Below, in pieces: positions 8,456 to 29,921 of a stretch of DNA of 34,997 nucleotides. The notes under the pieces are model-generated. The model saw nothing but the letters and a program-made list of their open reading frames with translations, did not search any database and was not told the DNA's origin. The position numbers and the translations under genes are program-made. The stretch covers positions 11,442,675-11,477,671 of the forward strand of contig NC_057719.1 of assembly GCF_004010195.1 (NCBI RefSeq), written 5' to 3'. Origin of the DNA: Chiloscyllium plagiosum (lineage: Eukaryota). How positions within the stretch are numbered: position 1 is the first letter of the stretch; every line of letters begins with the position of its first letter.

Positions 8456-9240
8456 GTTAACTTCACTTTTGGTCTTATCATCTCGCTGATGGTCTTTTCA
8501 TTGCATTACGTACTGTCTGGTCATATTTACTCCTTTCAAACTTATTCCACAGTTTAGAGGAGTCTAAAACCAGAGGGCATAAGTTTAAGATGAGAGAGGA
8601 AAGATTTAAAAGGGATGTAGTGGGTAACTTTTTTTTCATGCAGAGGGTGGTGCATGTATGGAATGAGCTGTCAGATGAAGTGACGGTGGCAGTACAATTA
8701 CAACGTTTAAAATGCACCTGAAAGAGTACATGAATAGGAAAGGTTGAGAGGGATATGGGTTAAATGCTGGCAAATGGGACTAGATTAATTTAGGATATCT
8801 GTTTGGAAAGGACAAGTTGGACTGAAGGGTATGTTTCCTTGCTGTACATCTCTAAATGTTCTTCTAAATTTCATCAAGTACATACCAGAGTTTTTAACCA
8901 CTCCTCGTATAACAAGCATTAGGAGGTATAGTTAATAAGTTTGCAGATGACATCAAAATTGGAGGTATAGTGGACAGCAAAGAAAGTACAATGGGATCCT
9001 GTCAGATGGGTCAGTGGGCTGAGGGGTGACAGGTGGAGTTTAATTTAGATAAATGCATTTTGGAAAGACAAATCAGAGCAGGATGTATACACTTAATGGT
9101 AAGGTCCTGGGGAGTGTTGCTGACTTTCAAATGCAGGTTCATAGTTCCTTGAAAGTAGAGTCACAGGTGGATAGGATCGTGAAGAAGGTGTTTGGTAAGC
9201 TTTCCTTTATTGGTCAGAGCATTGAGTATAGGAGTTGGGA

Positions 9241-9559: not shown

Positions 9560-9900
9560 TTAGATTAGATTAGATTAGATTCCCTATAATATGGAAACAG
9601 GCCATTCAGCCCAACAAGTCCACTCTGACCTTCCAAAGAGCAACCACCCAGATCCGTTCTCCTACGTTTACCCCTGACTAATATACCTAACACTAGGGCC
9701 AATTTAGCATAGCCAGTTCACCTGACCTTTGGATTGCACATCTTTGGATTGAGGGAGGAAACTGGAGCACCCGGAGGAAACCCTTGCAGACACGGGGCAA
9801 ATGTGCAAACTCCACACAGACCGTCACCTGAGGCTGGAATCAAACCAGATCCCTGATGCTGTGAGGCAACAGTTCTAACCACTGAGCCACCGTGCCACCC
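9560..9900 (-). mobile_element. tRNA-derived SINE (HE1-like) with (TCTAA)n tail
   Basis: Minus GGCACGGTGGCTCAGTGG A-box, B-box-like GGTTTGATTCC, and a gtttgcac core. Confidence 0.85.
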
Positions 9901-14545: not shown

Positions 14546-16642
14546 AGTCATAGAATCATAGCGCTGTACATGATGGAAACAGATCCTTTGCTCCAGCTTG
14601 CCCTTGCCAATCAGATATCCCAAGTTAATCTAGTCCCATTTGCCAGCATTTGACCCATACCCTTCTAAATCCTTCCTATACATATACCCATCCAGATGCC
14701 TATTTAAGTGTTATAATTGTACCTGCCTCCACCACTTGCTCTGGCAGGTCATTCCATATACACACACACACATCCCTCTACACGAATAAATTGCCCTTAG
14801 GTCTCTTTTAAATCTTTCCCCTCTCACATTAAACCTGTGCCCCCTTATTTTTAGACTTCCCTACCTTGGGGAAAAGACCTTGGCTATTCATCCTATCTAT
14901 GGCCCTCAACATTTTATGAACTTCTATAAGGTCACCCCTTATACTCCAACACTCCAGAGAAAATACCCCCAGCCTCTTCAGCCTTTTCTTATAGCTCAAA
15001 CCCTCCAACCCTGGCAACATCCTTGTGAATCTTTGTTGAATCTTCTCCAGTTTCACAACATCCATCCGATAGCAGGGAGACCAGAATTGCGTGCACTATT
15101 CTAAAAGTGGCTTAACCAATGTTGTGTACAACCGCAACGGACATCTGAACTCCTATACTCAGTGCATTGACCAATAAAGGCAAGCATACCTAACACCTTC
15201 CTCAGTATTCTATTTACCTGCGACTCTACTTTAAAAGAACTATGAACCTGCACCCCAAGGTCTACTTTTTCAGCAAACAAAGGACCTTACCATTAAATGT
15301 ATGTGTCCTGCCCTGATTTGCCTTTCCAAAATTTAACACCTCACATTTATATAAATTAAACTCCATCTGTTTCTCATTGGCCAATTTGGTCAAGGTCCCA
15401 ATGTACTTTGAGGTAAGGGTATTCTTCTTTGCTGTTTACTACACCACCAATTTTGGTGTCATCTGCAAACTTACTAATCATCCCTCCTATATTCACTTTC
15501 AAATCATTTTTATTAATGACAAAAAGCAGTGAACCTAGCACCGATCCTTGTGGCACACTACTAGTCACAGGCCTCCAGTCTGAAAAGCAACCCTCCACCG
15601 CCATCCTCTTCTACCTTCAACACAGTTCTGTATCGAAATGGCTAGTTCTACCTGTATTCCATGTGATCTAATCTTGTTCACTAGTCTACCATGAGGAACC
15701 TTGTTGAATGACTTACCGAAGTCCATATAGATCATGTCCACTACTCTGCCTTCATCAGTCCCGTTCATTACTTCTTCAAAAAAACTCAATTAAGTTTGTG
15801 ATGTCGTCCTGCTGCCTCCTCAGTCGAAGCAAAACACTTCGAGACACTATATAGTTTTACCTCCTTCATCTTTATTCCTGGCCCTGGCGGGGGAGAGAAC
15901 GATTACCCATGTGCACAGAGACATGAGTTCACTGTCTTCTCTGGAATAACAGAATTCTTAATGAATTATATAGTCCATTTTACAGGGAGGAGCATCCAGA
16001 TAGGACAACATACATATTGATTAGGTGACTGTTACAATCAGCGAGCTTCAACAGTAAAGATTAAGCCATCTGCTGTTACACAGTGAATGTTCTAAAACTT
16101 AACTGGCTTCACATAATGAATACTTTTCACCTTGTTAATCCATTACCCTTGTCTCCAGCACCCCATTGTTAACTGCACGTTCTTACCTGATCTGAGTCAT
16201 GCTCAGCTGAACCTCTTGTTTCACAAAACTCAGCACTTAACTCTTTCCCTACCTGCTCATACCTTATACACTTTCTCATTCCCTCCTTTTATCATTTCAT
16301 GATAACCACCAAGATGGAATTACCAGCTTTCATAAGACTCTGACAGCCAGTATTTAAGCAAGTTATTGCCACAGAGCATACAATGATTATAACAATAAAA
16401 ATTACTAATCCGTTACAGTAAATAGAGTTTGAAGAATCCTTCCATGTGAAAAAAAAATTCACTTGTAAAGTTCTTAAATCCACAGTCCTTAGTGACCACT
16501 CCATTCTCTCCAACTGGAGTGGAAAGAGGCCAGTTCTCCAAAATCTCCTTTAGCAAAGTCCAAACTGAAAACAAAATTCAGTCTTTTCTTCTACATCACT
16601 CCACACGGATATCTGAATTCTTGGATAAGGACAGGTAAATGC

Positions 16643-16962
16643 TTCACAAAACTGGCGAGACTTCCATCCTTGCAGAGACGCTTCAAATGGAGGATACCAC
16701 CGCATCTGAGTGTGTAGTGCAGCTGCTCCAACTGAAGGCTAGGTGAATGCAGCATTCTTTGCTGCTTCTGCTCCCACTCTGCTGTTAAATGTAACAAAGC
16801 AAACTGGCTGTTTTGATGTTAACTTGATCAGTGAACCATCATATCCCTTAAATGATCGAAAGACAAGGTAAAGCTCATGTGGTTTAATGTCCATAGGGCA
16901 CTGACAAAATGTGTACTGACCTCCTCTTCACTGTTGTTAGCTTCTTCACTTTTTGTGCTCAT
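16643..16962 (-). pseudogene. RBPMS2: Processed, internally deleted RBPMS2-like retrocopy in LTR element A (frameshift and stop)
   Basis: [21 protein letters not shown] /frameshift/ [83 protein letters not shown]. This includes the diagnostic RBPMS-family C-terminus. Confidence 0.9.
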
Positions 16963-18019
16963 GACTGGGGAGCTGATTGGATCAGGCTGTGGAGGGGTGC
17001 GTGGTGGTCCGAAGGCATGCATTACCTGTGAATGGAGAAACTTTAGGGACGATGTTAGCTGCTGAAAGTATCTTTGCATTTTCTGTCTCAAGCATGACCA
17101 CTGACCCAATTTTTTTAAAAAATAGGTATTGTAGAATTTCAAACAAATTAGGGGCTCAAGGCACTCAATCAATTTGTTTTAAGTTATAAGTTTGATCATT
17201 TTAAAAAGGACATGATGTTGTATAATTTCAATGTAAAAACAAAATCTGCCCCATTACATAGCCCACAAAACGCATTCAGTTGAGATCCTGATTCAAACAA
17301 CACAAAGCAGTTACCTAAAATGGATTTTCTGAACCAGTATTTTAACAAACCAACATGTTTAAACATCAAACACTCTCAGCATGGCACAATTTACATTGAA
17401 ACTTTCCTTTTACACCACAAGTATTAGTACAACCTTAATTTCAGCGTTGCATGTTTTTTTCTATCCTCTCACTGAAATTACACTTATAAAAAGAGAAAGC
17501 CCTCACAGCGAACCACAAGGTGCCGCAATCCAAGCCACTCTCTTCACCCAGAACAAAGACACACAGAGCCTCAAATTTCGCCACTAGTGGACTTTAACTC
17601 CTTTCTCACTTTACTCCTCACGGAGGCTTAAGCCCAATTAAATACAAAACTCAAACCCCACTTAAACACAGAATTCGAGCACCAATTAAACACAGAACCC
17701 AAGCCTCAAATAAACACACACAACTCGAATCTTAATTAAACACAGAGCTCGAACCCCAGCACAGCACGGAGGACTCTAACCTCAATTACACTCCCCTCCT
17801 CCCAATGCAGTGCAGAGAACTTGAACCTCTGTTTGTCAGTACGCTTGAGAAGCTGTATCTCTCAAATGAACTAATTGCCGTTCGAGGAATCCGTGGAGTA
17901 GAGTGCGATTGAGCGAGGGGACCAACTCCGGCACACAGGAATATCGAGAGGGACCAAGGTTTAAAATCTTACCTTGTGGGCCCGTCTGCCTCGAGGCACC
18001 GATGTTTCGGGTGGTTTGG

Positions 18020-18037
18020 ATCCTGCCGACTACACCA
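18020..18037 (-). other. Primer-binding site complementary to the tRNA-Ser 3' end (copy A)
   Basis: TGGTGTAGTCGGCAGGAT, 17/18 match to the same tRNA-Ser complement. Confidence 0.85.
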
Positions 18038-18974
18038 GTCATGCTCAGCTGAACCTCTTGTTTCATAAAACTCAGAACTTAACTCTTTTCCTTCCTGCTT
18101 ATTCTCAGTAAGACACTATTCCCTATGCACAAAGTCATATTGACTATCCCTAATCAGTCCTTGTATTTCCGAATAATGTACATCCTGTCCCTCAGTATCG
18201 TCCCGTTTGTTGCAAAGAAAGGTGCCAAAACACTTACCTGTTCCTATTCCAAGAGCATAATGACTGAGACAAGCTCTACCACCTACATGCTGGTCCAAAA
18301 CTAGGGACTTCCAAATCTCTCAATTCTGTTCTCATCACCTCTTGCCGATTACCATCGGGCTTGTATCATATATGTATGGCGGTGAGGGAGTTTTGAATTT
18401 CTCTAGGTTGATTCCTTGTGCGGGACACCTTTTAATGTAAGAATGCTGTTGCACATTAGTAGACACACGGTCGTTGACAGAAGGTGGATCTGGTTTCAGT
18501 GGCAGGCAAAACTCAACAGCCGTTGTCCCCTTCTGCTGGAGTCGTCTTCAACCATATATTGCCACCTTGCTATGGTAGAAAGACTTGAGTGCTCCATTAA
18601 TCCCGAGATTGATGCCGTCATGAGTTCTCAATTCCTGGCAGGATCACACATGACCGTAAGATTGGAGGGGAAAAACCAGAAAAAGCACAATTCAAAACAA
18701 GTCATCAGTGATGATTTAGGCTAAAGATGCCAGTGTGATATCAATGGTTCAGATGACTAATAGATGGAGATTAAATATTTTTGATGGTAAACTGCAGTGT
18801 GCATAAAGGCCTTGGTGAACTTTTTTTTTATTACAACCTTCTCTGGGGCAATTAGAAAATTACAAGCAGCACTGATAGCCCATGAATTCATAATATATAA
18901 AAAAAACTTGCCAGGCTGTTGTTGGGTAAATATGTCATGATTCTGACCTAAGTTTGCAGGAAGAATTACAGAAA

Positions 18975-19290
18975 AATCATAGAATACTTACAGTGCTGAA
19001 AGAAGTCATTCGGCTCATCAAGTCTCCAATGACCTCTGAAGAGCATCCAACTCTAACCCTGTAATCTCGCATTTAGCTTGGCTAATCCACCTGGCCTGCA
19101 TGTCCCTGGAAACTATGGGGCAATTCACAATGGGCACTCCATCTAACCTGTACATCTTTCGACTATAGGAGGAGACCAGAGCAGCCAGTGGAAACCCACA
19201 CAGACATGTGGAGAATGTGCAAACTCCACACAGATAGTTGCCCAAGGATGCAATGAAACCACTGCTAACTGTTGAGCCACTGTGCTGCGT
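18975..19290 (-). mobile_element. HE1-like SINE, diverged
   Basis: cacagtggctcaaca head and tgtggagtttgcacattctcc core. Confidence 0.75.
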
Positions 19291-25129: not shown

Positions 25130-26132
25130 TACAGAAAACGGTTGAGGTAGTTGGTTAGCTCACCGAACTGCTGGGTTATAATGCAGACGTTCGTTACCAT
25201 GCTGGGTAACATCATCAATGCGACTTCTGTGAAGCGCTGTTGTTCTGTCCCACTTTGTTTTTATGTGGCCCAGTCTGTTGGGGTGAGTGTCACTTTCAGG
25301 TCTTCTCTGCAGCGGTTTATACACTGGGTTCATCCCTGTGTGAGTTGATAGCCTTTTTGGTAGAAACCCATGCTTTCATTTGATGTCATGGCCCTATTCA
25401 CCTCCATTGACACACCATTAGTCAAGGAAACAATTGCCATGCTACCAGAGGATCCAGTAACAATTACTTCTAGCAACACCATCAGCACAGACAACATGCT
25501 CAAGCTACTTGACTTATTCCTCACTACCCCACTTTGTCTTCAGTGGCCAGATATATCAACAAGTCAACAGCACACAAATGGGCCCTCTCATGATTAGATT
25601 CCCTATAGTGTGGAAACAGGCCCTTCAGCCCAACAAGTCCACACCAACCCACCGAAGAGTAACCCACCCAGACCCATCTCCCTCTGACTAATGAACCTAA
25701 CACTAGGGCAATTTAGCATAGCCAATTCACCTGACTTGCACAACTTTGTGTGCTGTGGGAGGAAACCAGAGCACCCGGAGGAAACCCACGCAGACATGGG
25801 AAGAATGTGCAAACTCCACACAGACCGGAGACTGGGATCGAACCTGGGACCCTAGTGCTGTGAGGCAGCAGTGCTAACCACTGAGCCACCGTTCCGACCG
25901 GACTAATGTCATGTCAGGACTAATAGCAGAAGCAGTCATGCAGAGATTTGAAAACACAGCCCTTCCCCTAATCCAACTGAGCTATGGACACAATCCGTGG
26001 ACAACACATTTGTTAACATCAAACATACAAGACTAGAGGAAACACACCATCTCATGAACAGTATACTCACCGGCATCAAGTTTACCAGGAGGAAGAGAAG
26101 ATCAACCAAGTCGCATTCCTAGATGACATGAT
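25130..26132 (+). mobile_element. Decayed Penelope-like element (inverted pLTR remnant + RT), continuing at 29527-29610
   Basis: SFDVMALFTSID and YQQVNSTQMG RT motifs. Homology to the 8099-8455 RT resumes after LTR element B. Interrupted by a SINE. Confidence 0.7.
25592..25898 (-). mobile_element. HE1-like SINE
   Basis: A-box GTGGCTCAGTGG, B-box GGTTCGATCCC and the shared core. Confidence 0.87.
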
Positions 26133-26234
26133 TGAGAACGTGTGTAAGGTATGAGCAGGTAGGGAAAGAGTTAAGTTTCAAGTTTTGTGAAACAAAAGAT
26201 TCAGCTAGCATGACTTGGAGGCAAGGATAATGGT

Positions 26235-26428
26235 TTAACAAAGTGAAGAAGCATTTATTATGAGAAGTCATTTAACAAGATGATGAAGAATTTATTATGA
26301 GAAGCCATTTAACAAGATGATGAAGCATTCATTATGTAAAGCCATTTAACAAGATGAAGAAGCATTTAATATGTAAAGTTAGTTAACAAGGTGAAAAGTA
26401 TTCATTATGTGAAACCAACTAACAAGGT
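26235..26428 (+). repeat. ~36-37-bp tandem repeat (5 units) in U3 of the 5' LTR of element B
   Basis: Unit approximately ttaacaagatgatgaagcattcattatgtaaagccat. Confidence 0.85.
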
Positions 26429-26734
26429 TTAGAACTTTCATTGTGTAACAGCAGATGGCTTATCTTTATCATTGACACTCGCTGATTGTAACGGTCACTC
26501 AATCAATATGTATGTTGCCTTATCTGGATGCTCCTCCCTGTAACTGACTATATAATTCATTAAGAAACTAGTTTTCGAAAAAAGAGAGCTCATGTCTCTG
26601 TGCACATGGGCGATCGTTCTCTCTCCCTCCTGGAATAAAGATGAAGGAGGTCCAGAATAAAGATGAAGGAGGTAAAACTATACTGTCTCGCTGAGCGTTT
26701 TGCTTTGACTGAAGTGGGAACGGGTCGACAATAT

Positions 26735-26752
26735 TGGCATAGTCGGCAGAAT
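26735..26752 (+). other. Primer-binding site complementary to the tRNA-Ser 3' end (copy B)
   Basis: 16/18 match to TGGCGTAGTCGGCAGGAT, the reverse complement of the recalled vertebrate tRNA-Ser(AGA/TGA) 3' end plus CCA. Sits just after the LTR. Confidence 0.85.
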
Positions 26753-27009
26753 CCAAATGAATAGTTACGATCGGATGGTGTCAGCGATCTCCCGGAACAT
26801 TGTTATCTCGAGATGGACAGGCTCACAAGGCAAGATTTTAACCCTTGGTCCCTCTCGATATTCCCGTGTGTTGGAAACGGTCCCCTCGTTCAATTGCTTT
26901 CTATTCTACGGACTCCTCGAATGGTACTTAGTTCAGTCGAGAGAAACAGTTTTGCAAGTGCGTAGACAAAGAGGTTCATGTCCTCTGTGCTGTATTGGCG
27001 GGGATGGGG

Positions 27010-27200
27010 TTTAATTGTGGTTCAAATCCTCTGTGCTTTTTTCGGAGGGATTAATTGAGGTTAGAGTCCACTGCGTTGTATTGAGGTTCGAGTCCTCCGT
27101 ACTGTTTCGGGGTTTGAGTTCTCTGTGTTTAAGTGGGATTTGAGTTTTCTGTGTTTAATTGCAATTCGAGTCCTCTGTGTTTAATTGGGGTTTGAGCCTC
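27010..27200 (+). repeat. Degenerate ~26-35-bp tandem repeat in the leader of element B (mirrored at ~17625-17800 in copy A)
   Basis: Recurrent ttcgagtcctctgtgtttaattgggg-like units. Confidence 0.7.
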
Positions 27201-28388
27201 CATGAGGAGTAAAGTGAGAAAGGGGTTAAAGTCTCCTAGTGGCAATAGTTGAGGCTCTGCGAATTTTGATGTTTTAAAATGTTGGTTTATTAAAATACTG
27301 GTTCAGAAAATCCTTTTAAGTAACAATTTTGCCTTATTTGAATCCAGACCTCAATTCCCTGTATTTTGAGGGCTATGTAATGGGGCAGATTTTGTTTTTA
27401 CATTAAAATTGTCTAACATTTATGTCCTTTTTAAAATTATCAAACTGGTAACCTTAAAACAAATTGATTGAGTGCCTTGAGCCCCTGATTCATTTGAAAT
27501 TCTACAATGCCTATTTAAAAAAACAGTTGGGTCAGTGGTCATGCTTTAGCCAGCTGAGAGTATTGTACTAAAATATCTTTGCTGTGTTTTTAATGCAGAG
27601 TGTTCACAAAAAGAAGAGTGCATTTTGAGTTTGATGTTTTGTTAAGATTTTAGAGAATATTAGAAGTTGAGGCTGAGCTGTTTCAGTTCTGTTAATTATT
27701 ATTAAGAATTCATTGGCCCCCTTCATATTGCAAATTCAAAGAATATTGATCTGTACCAAAAGTTGGCACTGTAATTCTGACTATTTTATTTAGGAAGTTT
27801 CATTTGGAGAACATATTTTAAAATACTCAGCATTTGTTTCCCACAAATATTTTGAGATTTAAATCTAAACTGAAACTGCCTCTTTAATTACGAAAGCACA
27901 GAAAACATTTTGTTGTTTTCTTGCTATTCGAGACTTTTGAAATAGTTTTCCTGACAGCTTTCACACTAGCCAAGTATTAATTTGTTAAAGGAAAGTAATT
28001 TTTGAATAACCTGAATGGGGTCCCCCAAGGGTTTGATTATAGGACCACTGATTGTTGTTTATAACTGACTGAATTGTCTAGGCAGTACAATTTAAAAGTT
28101 TATGGATTTTATAAAACTTGATAATGTCATAAATAGAGAACAGAGTAATAGACTTCAAGAATTCAAAACATGTTGAAATAGGCCGACACAATTTAGTGTA
28201 GTTGAATGTGTGACTGTCTTCATACTGATAATCACCTTGGCAAGGAAAGAGTGAGAGAGGAAATGCAAATATACTTTCAGCAGCTAACATCTTCTCTAGA
28301 GTTTCTCCATTCACAGGTAAAGCACACCTTCGGACCACTGTCCACCCCTCCACAACCTGATCCAATGATTTCAATCAGCTTCCCAGTC

Positions 28389-28655
28389 ATGAGCACGAAA
28401 AGTGAAGAAGCTAGCAACAGTGAAGAGGAGGTCGGTACACTTTTTGTCAGTGACATTAAACCACATGAGCTTTACCTTGTCTTTCGATCATTTAAGGGAT
28501 ATGATGGTTCACTGATCAAGCTAACATCACAGCAGCCAGTTTGCTTTGTTACATTTAACAGCAGAGCGGGAGCAGAAGCAGCAAAGAATGCTGCATTCAC
28601 TGGGCCAGCTGCTGCACTGCTCACTTCGGAAGGATGGAAGTCTCGTCAGCTTTAA
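28389..28655 (+). pseudogene. RBPMS2: Processed, internally deleted RBPMS2-like (RBPMS-family RRM) retrocopy in LTR element B; 88-codon open frame
   Basis: [71 protein letters not shown]...EGWKSRQL. Recalled RBPMS2-type sequence: [61 protein letters not shown]...AAFTYP...QGWKSRQFC. No introns. RBPMS2 versus RBPMS is less certain than the family call. Confidence 0.88.
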
Positions 28656-29616
28656 GTATTTAACTGACCTTACCCAAGTATTCAGATTTCCCCATGGAGT
28701 GGTGTGCAAGGACAGACTGGATTTTGTGTTCAGGTTTGACTTTATTGAAGGAGATTTTGGATAACTGGCTCGCTTCCACTCGACTTGGAGGGGATGGAGT
28801 GGTCACTAAGGACTGTGGATTTAAGAACTTTACTGGTGATTTTTTTTCCACAAGAGAGGATTGTTTAAATTCTATTTACTGTAACAGACTAATAATTTTT
28901 GTTGTTATAATCATTGTATGCTATGTGTCAATAACTTGCTTAAATAATGGCTGAGAGAGTCTTATGAAAGATGGTAGTGCCATCTAGGTGGTTATCATGA
29001 AATGAAAGAAGGAGGGAATGAGAAAGTGTATAAGGTATGAGCAGGTAGGGAAAGAGTTAAGTTTTGGGTTGTGTAACAAAGGCTCAGCTAGCTTGACTTG
29101 GACCAGATAAGAACTTACAGTAAACAATGACGTGCTGGAGACAAGGGTAGTAGGTTAATGAGATGAAAAAACATTCATTATATAAAGCCAGTTAACAAGG
29201 TGAAAAGCATTTATTATGTGAAGCCAGTTAACAAGGTTAAGAACGTTCATTGTATAATGCCAGATGGCTTAATCTGTATTGTTGATGCTCGCTGTTTGTA
29301 ATGGTCACCCAATCGATATAGATGTTGCCTTATTTGGATGCTGCTCCCTGTAAGTGACTAGATAATTACTGAAGAATCTGCTGTTCAAGAGAAGCCAGAG
29401 AACTCTGTGCACATGGGCAATCGTTCTCTCCCCCTCCAGAGCCCAGAGTAAAGATGAAGGAGGTAAAGCCATACTGTGTCTCAGCGTCTTGCTTCGACTG
29501 ATATGGGACAGGGAAACAGGACAACAATATAACCAACAGGGGATTTACAACCAAAGTGTACAGGATACCCACCACACTGACCAGATCCTCAACTACAATA
29601 GCAACCACCCTACTTT

Positions 29617-29921
29617 TTAGATTAGATTACTTACAGTGTGGAAACAGGTCCTTCAGCCCAACAAGTCCACACCGACCCTCCGAAGAGACCCACCCAGACC
29701 CATTCCCCTACACCTAACACTAGGGGCAATTTAGCATGGCCAATTCACCTAACTTGCACATTTTTGGACTGTGGGAGGAAACCGGAGTACCCGGAGGAAA
29801 CCCACGCAGACACGGGGAGAATGTGCAAACTGCACACAGACAGTTGCCTGAGGTGGGAATTGAACCCGGGTCTCTGGCGCTGTGAGGCAGTAGTGCTAAC
29901 CACTGTGCTACCGTGTCGCCC
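29617..29921 (-). mobile_element. HE1-like SINE
   Basis: A-box GTAGCACAGTGG, B-box GGTTCAATTCC, shared core and tail. Confidence 0.87.

Follow-up and report, generated by a model that had tools for sequence, protein, structure and literature searches.

A spliced RBPMS2 mRNA carried by a high-copy, probably retrovirus-derived repeat family in the shark Chiloscyllium plagiosum

We analyzed a stretch of 34,997 nucleotides from the shark Chiloscyllium plagiosum (contig NC_057719.1, positions 11,442,675 to 11,477,671; hereafter the window), which contains two copies of a long terminal repeat (LTR) element carrying sequence of the host gene RBPMS2. The longer copy comprises, from 5' to 3', an LTR, a primer binding site (PBS), a repetitive leader, an RBPMS2-derived cargo, a polypurine tract and a second LTR (Table 1). 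This is the order proposed in an earlier, sequence-only reading of the same DNA, and it holds for every part. The two LTRs are 83% identical over 495 aligned bases in a self-comparison (Kimura two-parameter distance, K2P, 0.19). Each starts with a TG that directly follows a purine run and has ACA at its end, and the same junctions line up in 12 other copies; the purine run, ...AAAGAAGGAGGGAA, abuts the TG of the 3' LTR and is kept in 12/12 copies shown. The PBS 18-mer agrees at 16 of its 18 bases with the reverse complement of the tRNA-Ser(AGA) 3' end plus CCA. Three genes with the PBS-matching 3' end are present in the genome and are called tRNA-Ser(aga) by ARAGORN, and two further loci, L026 and L027, have the same PBS, decayed differently. 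In L026 (C3:44927123-44934122), both LTRs end with a duplicated spacer and the first PBS bases (...GACAATATTGGCGGGAAACGG...), from which it follows that the start of the PBS was copied into the LTR.

The second copy, which the sequence-only reading had described as separately inserted with the same cargo, is confirmed as such: it lies on the minus strand, and the flanks of the two copies are non-homologous. It matches window positions 28252-29501 at 80% identity, as well as the leader and the LTR ends; most of its 5' LTR is gone, as is the segment corresponding to 27553-28252. The cargo of this copy reads ...AAKNAAFT*P....

The reading frame of the cargo (28389-28652) retrieves RBPMS/RBPMS2 RNA recognition motif (RRM) structures from the PDB with E = 5e-22. 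Aligned to shark RBPMS2, it comprises the N-terminus and the first half of the RRM, then jumps from ...AAKNA to AFTYP and ends in GWKSRQL, with a private four-residue loss and a shortened C-terminus in addition. The breakpoints of the cargo deletion are not at exon borders. Pfam RRM_1 reaches 18.1 bits on this frame, under its cutoff of 20.7; the RRM is incomplete in the window, and copies of a sister family described below contain the whole domain, but with stops. A stop, frameshift or deletion is found in nearly every cargo copy read. What had been taken for an intronless RBPMS-family coding sequence (CDS) is indeed derived from RBPMS2, but as a decayed fragment, not as the whole RBPMS2 CDS.

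The genome's own RBPMS2 gene lies on contig C40 and spans more than 105 kb. Its start-codon exon is located at C40:25026164, and the exons encoding residues 53-74, 75-124 and 126-173, all 100% identical to the public shark protein P0003, are found ~62, 68 and 75 kb downstream of it. The last coding exon occupies C40 25128921-25128995, with a 3' untranslated region (UTR) exon 2.9 kb further downstream. Our comparison of native exons takes in all but those for residues 15-52. In L015, a copy containing the whole CDS, three exons, which the gene keeps 6.2 and 6.3 kb apart, follow each other directly, with borders at query positions 1275/1277 and 1426/1427. The stop-codon exon is joined exactly to the 3'UTR exon, at 8841/8842 in L015 and at 28662/28663 in the window, where the native gene has the donor GTATTTA/GTAAGT and the acceptor CCAG/ACTG; homology to exon 1 stops at the donor GAGGAG/GTAAGG. 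The cargo thereby displays four exact exon-exon joins, three coding and one in the 3'UTR. Window positions 28370-28432 are 90% identical to native exon 1, 28630-28662 correspond to the last coding exon and 28663-28849 to the 3'UTR exon (85% identity). Since exons abut to the base and the cargo is 83-94% identical to native exons overall at the nucleotide level, the cargo is the spliced mRNA of the C40 RBPMS2 gene.

The P0003 isoform has an alternative last exon (QDDRNWMQYS...HPIYM), of which three diverged look-alikes occur in the same gene region (L023/L024/L029); a related frame is also present inside a decayed provirus on C21. These look-alikes make the alternative last exon look repeat-derived.

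The element belongs to a large family, as the sequence-only reading had suspected from two copies in what it took for one intron. In first-look, uncurated candidate counts over the 3.56 Gb searched, the cargo region gave 661 candidates (the 40 scored yielded 44 matches of 78-87% identity on many contigs), the 3'UTR part 552 and the leader 400 (70-82% identity). A 30-nt degenerate C-terminal pattern had 150 matches, against 0 for its reversed control. Using as query the part of RBPMS2 that is absent from the window, we identified a whole-CDS form in 57 intronless matches from 84 candidates.

Copies of this whole-CDS form share with the window element only the stretch 28211-29023; their LTR and leader differ, and we refer to them as the sister family. 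Sister-family LTRs measure 430-490 bp. Upstream of the cargo, sister copies contain the C-terminus of RNase H and the N-terminus of integrase, and the type represented by L015, L034 and L038 retains the integrase core as well. In local alignments, the LTRs of the two families show no similarity (z -0.7 to 0.6 against shuffles) and their leaders a marginal one (z = 3, at matching distances from the LTR); homology between the families ends exactly at the border of polypurine tract and U3. A tRNA-Ser(GCT)-type 3' end, a candidate primer for the sister PBS, has no exact match in the genome. A sub-variant of the whole-CDS form (L009/L017, L012/L018, L019, L022, L034, L038, L011/L016) jumps from ...YTTELTPA into the 3'UTR (...RLDFVFR...) and lacks ~40 C-terminal codons and the stop.

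Selection on the cargo was assessed from 12 whole-CDS copies over 122 codons. The ratio of non-synonymous to synonymous divergence (dN/dS) is 0.39 between copies and the native gene and 0.74 between copies (66 pairs). Singleton differences are spread over the three codon positions as 59/60/42, which indicates neutral decay after insertion. Eleven differences present in at least 60% of the copies fall 1/2/8 by codon position; purifying selection acting on the host gene since the capture, on the master element, or on both would account for this pattern.

These figures bear on the idea that the frame derived from RBPMS2 serves the element as an accessory gene, for instance an RNA-binding helper, and was selected for aiding its propagation. 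Such a role would agree with the 1/2/8 pattern and with the fact that no subfamily has dropped the cargo, while gag, pol and the integrase core were lost; furthermore, the public bamboo-shark models P0010 (132 aa) and P0011 (126 aa) are open frames derived from the element. We nevertheless find an accessory gene improbable. In the form with the most copies, the C-terminal half of the RRM is missing and the score stays under the RRM_1 cutoff; stops or frameshifts interrupt nearly all copies read; the copy-to-copy ratio and the singleton spread speak against constraint; and purifying selection on the host gene, acting since the capture, would produce the 1/2/8 pattern just as well. That the window frame has lost half its RRM, together with the decay of the other copies, implies that the cargo protein was not needed for the largest burst of copying. 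Between the two LTRs of a copy, K2P amounts to 0.18-0.19 for the window type (two copies) and to 0.10-0.17 for the sister type (seven copies), which means an age of tens of millions of years if vertebrate neutral rates are assumed.

We now turn to the vector. The sequence-only reading had seen no recognisable gag, pol or env and had placed the cargo where gag and pol would be; both statements have to be revised. Directly upstream of the RBPMS2 5'UTR lies an integrase remnant that is 79-87% identical to two separate integrase parts in six loci devoid of cargo (L032, L035, L036, L037, L039, L040), relatives that we found by a DNA search with the integrase core. A core of ~650 bp is deleted in the window remnant. 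In L015 it is kept between the remnant's two parts, directly upstream of the cargo (Pfam rve, E = 6.7e-9; a comparison of this core with the PDB gave no match). Five cargo-less relatives (L032, L035, L036, L037, L039) match the window up to 28338-28340 and continue from there into the integrase C-terminal domain (..RWKGPFQVLLQTPTAVKV..), with no cargo. Homology to these endogenous retroviruses (ERVs) restarts at window position 28868 and runs to the polypurine tract (28868-28922 and 28889-29005, against L037 and L032), and homology to the native 3'UTR ends between 28849 and ~28866, without an A-run.

Aligning the cargo to native RBPMS2 with its UTRs, as had been suggested, has mapped both capture junctions. 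At the 5' join, the ERV reads ...ACCACTG, the native upstream sequence ...AGCACTG TCCACCCCCTCC and the elements ...ACCACTG TCCACCCCTCC, CACTG being common to all; at the 3' join, CCTAT is common to both sides. Between the joins, the cargo comprises ~110 nt of 5'UTR, the coding exons and the 3'UTR up to a point ~215 nt inside its second exon. The joins are identical in all subfamilies examined, from which it follows that there was one single capture. The ERV stretch that should lie between them, namely the integrase C-terminal domain and what is downstream, is missing and not displaced. The cargo thus replaced the integrase C-terminal domain and whatever came after it, and the region from gag to RNase H and the integrase core were lost after the capture, by separate deletions. 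As for the identity of the parent, a cargo-less relative on C21, read over 10 kb, has Pfam matches to RVP, rve and, weakly, RVT_1, and its reverse transcriptase (RT) fragment has the Moloney murine leukemia virus RT as best match (E = 1.4e-8); to judge from these domains, the parent is a class I (gammaretrovirus-like) ERV.

In vertebrates, intronless gene copies most commonly originate as processed pseudogenes, and the cargo is intronless. One might therefore suppose that a processed RBPMS2 pseudogene made by a long interspersed nuclear element (LINE) landed in a defective LTR element, which then amplified. The joins make this very improbable. The cargo breaks off within its 3'UTR exon with no A-run and abuts sequence common to cargo-less ERVs; on the 5' side it meets the integrase linker at CACTG; no repeats bracket it; and the intervening ERV sequence is absent instead of being pushed aside. 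The internal poly(A) and target-site duplication (TSD) by which the sequence-only reading would have recognised a LINE insertion are thus not what is observed, as no poly(A) is present and the cargo runs straight into the retroviral tail. Moreover, the shared CACTG and CCTAT are marks of template switching like those described by Tan et al. (2016, PMC5131818), which disfavours a LINE-made pseudogene. As to DNA-level duplication without retrotransposition, for which the location of two copies 8 kb apart in the window might speak, there is next to no chance of it, given their opposite strands and non-homologous flanks, the matches on dozens of contigs, where a purely local origin would have left only two loci with homologous flanks, and the separate LTR pair of each full copy, with divergences of 0.10-0.19.

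The order in which the family took shape can be read from its members. The window remnant and the sister family have the same integrase-core deletion and the window cargo has further deletions, which makes the window type a descendant of the sister type. Four loci were retrieved from the C-terminal pattern search, and two of them, L045 and L046, combine a window-type interior, that is, the AT-rich segment and the deleted cargo, with a sister-type LTR; these hybrids indicate that the interior changed first and that the LTRs were exchanged later. Four successive derivatives can accordingly be distinguished: the L015 type of 4.3 kb, with integrase core and whole RBPMS2 CDS; a 3.4-kb form that has lost the core; the form of L045 and L046, with AT-rich segment and internally deleted cargo still between sister LTRs; and the window type, whose LTRs are unrelated to those of the other forms and whose tRNA-Ser primer site and leader differ as well. 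In addition, one copy has 3.9 kb between leader and cargo. The proposal that an LTR element captured the RBPMS2 mRNA is in this respect only half right: the capture did occur, but not in the LTR backbone seen in the window, which received its cargo, by then already shortened, from a family whose LTRs are different.

Taken together, we conclude that the element is very probably a non-autonomous derivative of a class I (gammaretrovirus-like) ERV with a transduced host RBPMS2 mRNA. With its exact joins and its copies on many contigs, it bears out the suggestion of a spliced host mRNA in a defective LTR vector, the chimera transposing as a family. The fusion would have arisen when RT switched templates between a viral and a host RNA packaged together. 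The LTRs may then have been exchanged in a second, double switch between the co-packaged RNAs of two related ERVs, one breakpoint lying at the border of polypurine tract and U3 and the other upstream of the integrase remnant. The derivatives would have been copied in trans, in the germline, by the Gag-Pol of intact relatives, the RBPMS2 sequence being a passenger and the present copies fossils.

Several observations weigh against this interpretation or weaken parts of it. In the sister family, ~130 nt lie between the CACTG join and clear 5'UTR homology, which begins 77 nt before the ATG; this stretch (L015 8029-8180, with equivalents in L016 and L017) finds no match in the 1.4 kb that precede the native start exon. 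The gene could have lost it, the element could have gained it, or it could stem from another 5' exon; its absence from today's gene makes the 5' join less secure than the 3' join. No Pfam match to env was obtained downstream of integrase in the one decayed cargo-less relative scanned, so that the term 'retrovirus' rests on likeness of RT, protease and integrase. An intact helper was not identified: the cargo-less relative read over 10 kb is decayed, its 5' LTR lies beyond the part read, and no LTR of window or sister type was reached in it. Likewise, a non-exhaustive search found no gag-pol element with the window LTR, nor the autonomous partner with the same LTR and tRNA-Ser PBS that the sequence-only reading had suggested looking for. 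Candidate TSDs are imperfect, TGAT/ATAT in the window (2/4) and TTGG/TTCG in L027 (3/4); decay at K ~0.19 can mask a 4-bp repeat. The 1/2/8 codon pattern could mean that it was the cargo, and not the host gene, that was under selection in the past. Finally, the copy numbers are the uncurated ones given above.

Table 1. Parts of the RBPMS2-carrying element and its second copy, in window coordinates
Feature	Position	Strand	Remarks
5' LTR	26133-26730	+	TG...CA; ends set by comparison with 12 other copies
37-bp tandem unit, 5.2 copies	26234-26426	+	within 5' LTR
PBS, tRNA-Ser(AGA)	26735-26752	+	after 4-nt ATAT spacer; 16/18 bases match
Leader	26753-27262	+	26-bp tandem array at 27109-27196
AT-rich non-coding family-specific segment	27265-28210	+	contiguous with cargo in L025, L028 (80-82% identity)
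Integrase remnant	28211-28340	+	N-terminal piece 28211-28250 joined to pre-C-terminal-domain linker 28252-28340
RBPMS2 5'UTR remnant	28341-28388	+	~180 bp deleted at 28365/28370, seen against L009-L014
Truncated RBPMS2 frame	28389-28655	+	88 codons + stop (28653-28655); only N-terminal half of RRM
RBPMS2 3'UTR, two native exons joined at 28662/28663	28656-28866	+	no poly(A)
Retroviral 3' tail ending in polypurine tract	28868-29018	+	aligns to cargo-less L037, L032
3' LTR	29019-29526	+	TG...CA; holds 2.7 copies of 37-bp tandem unit
Second copy of window-type family	15802-18107	-	same cargo, separately inserted

The remaining parts of the window element gave few matches. Frames in the leader have no Pfam match, and the AT-rich segment contains no reading frames, is likewise free of Pfam matches and shows no likeness to the native gene stretches, the sister family or one cargo-less ERV with which it was compared. 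ARAGORN reports a tRNA-Tyr at 26956-27039, inside the leader; this is probably spurious, as Rfam finds no tRNA there, nor any of its families in the window. The element is inserted in an older repeat (25990-26132 and 29527-29620), whose frame (...VAFLDDMI / YNQQGIYNQSVQDTHHTDQILNYNSNHP...) resumes across the insertion and which we take to resemble an RT-bearing retroelement. A repeat of ~300 bp occurs in three to four copies (9570-9900, 25592-25899 and 29620-29921, also 19117-19260; families D4-D6 and D16), one of them directly flanking the element on either side; it is probably a short interspersed nuclear element.

Capture of host mRNA by retroviruses is textbook knowledge for tumour viruses; the germline cases known in ERVs or LTR elements are few and low-copy. 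In acutely transforming (v-onc) retroviruses, a spliced cellular mRNA replaces 3' viral genes in a defective, helper-dependent genome. Those viruses are exogenous, somatic and selected for cell growth, whereas the shark element is endogenous, germline-fixed and ancient; RBPMS2 is not known to be an oncogene. A second parallel is offered by the ETn elements, which kept LTR, PBS, leader and polypurine tract, lost their coding capacity and reached high copy number by means of a helper. ETn carries no host gene, in contrast to the shark family with its RBPMS2; its pairing with MusD is mentioned by Tan et al. (PMC5131818).

The same paper describes LTR-mediated retroposition by template switching and cites maize Bs1 and HERV-K FAM8A1. 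Like the chimeras reported there, the shark element has an internal retrocopy within one LTR element, a 3'-truncated mRNA without poly(A) and microsimilarity at the switch points, and such chimeras can likewise act as non-autonomous LTR elements and be copied again. Secondary retroposition is small in the cases reported there (1-5 copies for Bs1, few sites in flies), whereas the shark family runs to hundreds of copies, shows graded deletions and has exchanged its LTRs. Crocodilian ERVs captured the host mRNAs of nectin3 (CrocERV31) and KIT-ligand (CrocERV29) (Chong et al. 2014, PMC4299795). In these too, a germline ERV acquired a spliced host mRNA and spread it by retrotransposition, the capture being common to several insertions, and in CrocERV31 the nectin3 cargo came at the cost of a viral gene (PMC4299795). 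The crocodilian lineages (PMC4299795) have few copies (six nectin3 insertions are named), kept gag-pol and have reading frames reported to be under purifying selection; the shark family differs in the loss of nearly all viral genes, hundreds of copies, neutral decay of the cargo and the passage of that cargo to a second, unrelated LTR pair. In our literature searches, no publication turned up that describes RBPMS or RBPMS2 within an ERV or another LTR element.

In zebrafish, rbpms2 has roles in the oocyte and the Balbiani body, as reported in PMC6049948; by analogy, this would fit availability of the mRNA in the shark germline. One may go further and suppose that the RBPMS2 RNA segment itself (UTR and 5' coding part of an oocyte Balbiani-body-associated gene) gave the chimera a germline edge through stability, localisation or packaging. 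We hold this to be improbable. If true, it would explain why the segment was kept in every derivative while viral genes were shed, why it survived on a second LTR backbone and how it out-multiplied all known gene-carrying ERVs.

A search of sequencing runs listed no RNA run with the sequence; runs under three organism labels shared 0.22-0.40 of the sampled words, a figure from which we draw no conclusion. The family also leaves traces in public annotation. P0010 and P0011, annotated as RBPMS2-like, begin with the integrase-linker remnant and are thus element frames. In the epaulette shark, P0001, a low choriolytic enzyme-like protein, starts with the deleted cargo, followed by an astacin domain (PF01400), which is either exonisation of the element or an annotation artefact. 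Copies of the element annotated as 'RBPMS2-like', one of them fused to a hatching-enzyme-like model, are a practical problem.

The shark family is a high-copy, vector-swapping case of a known process, retroviral or LTR-mediated mRNA capture. A single capture can be traced here through a fossil series, from integrase plus whole gene, through loss of the core and deletions in the cargo, to exchange of both LTRs. This series makes the template-switch model testable step by step, and it illustrates that a captured cargo can pass between vectors.

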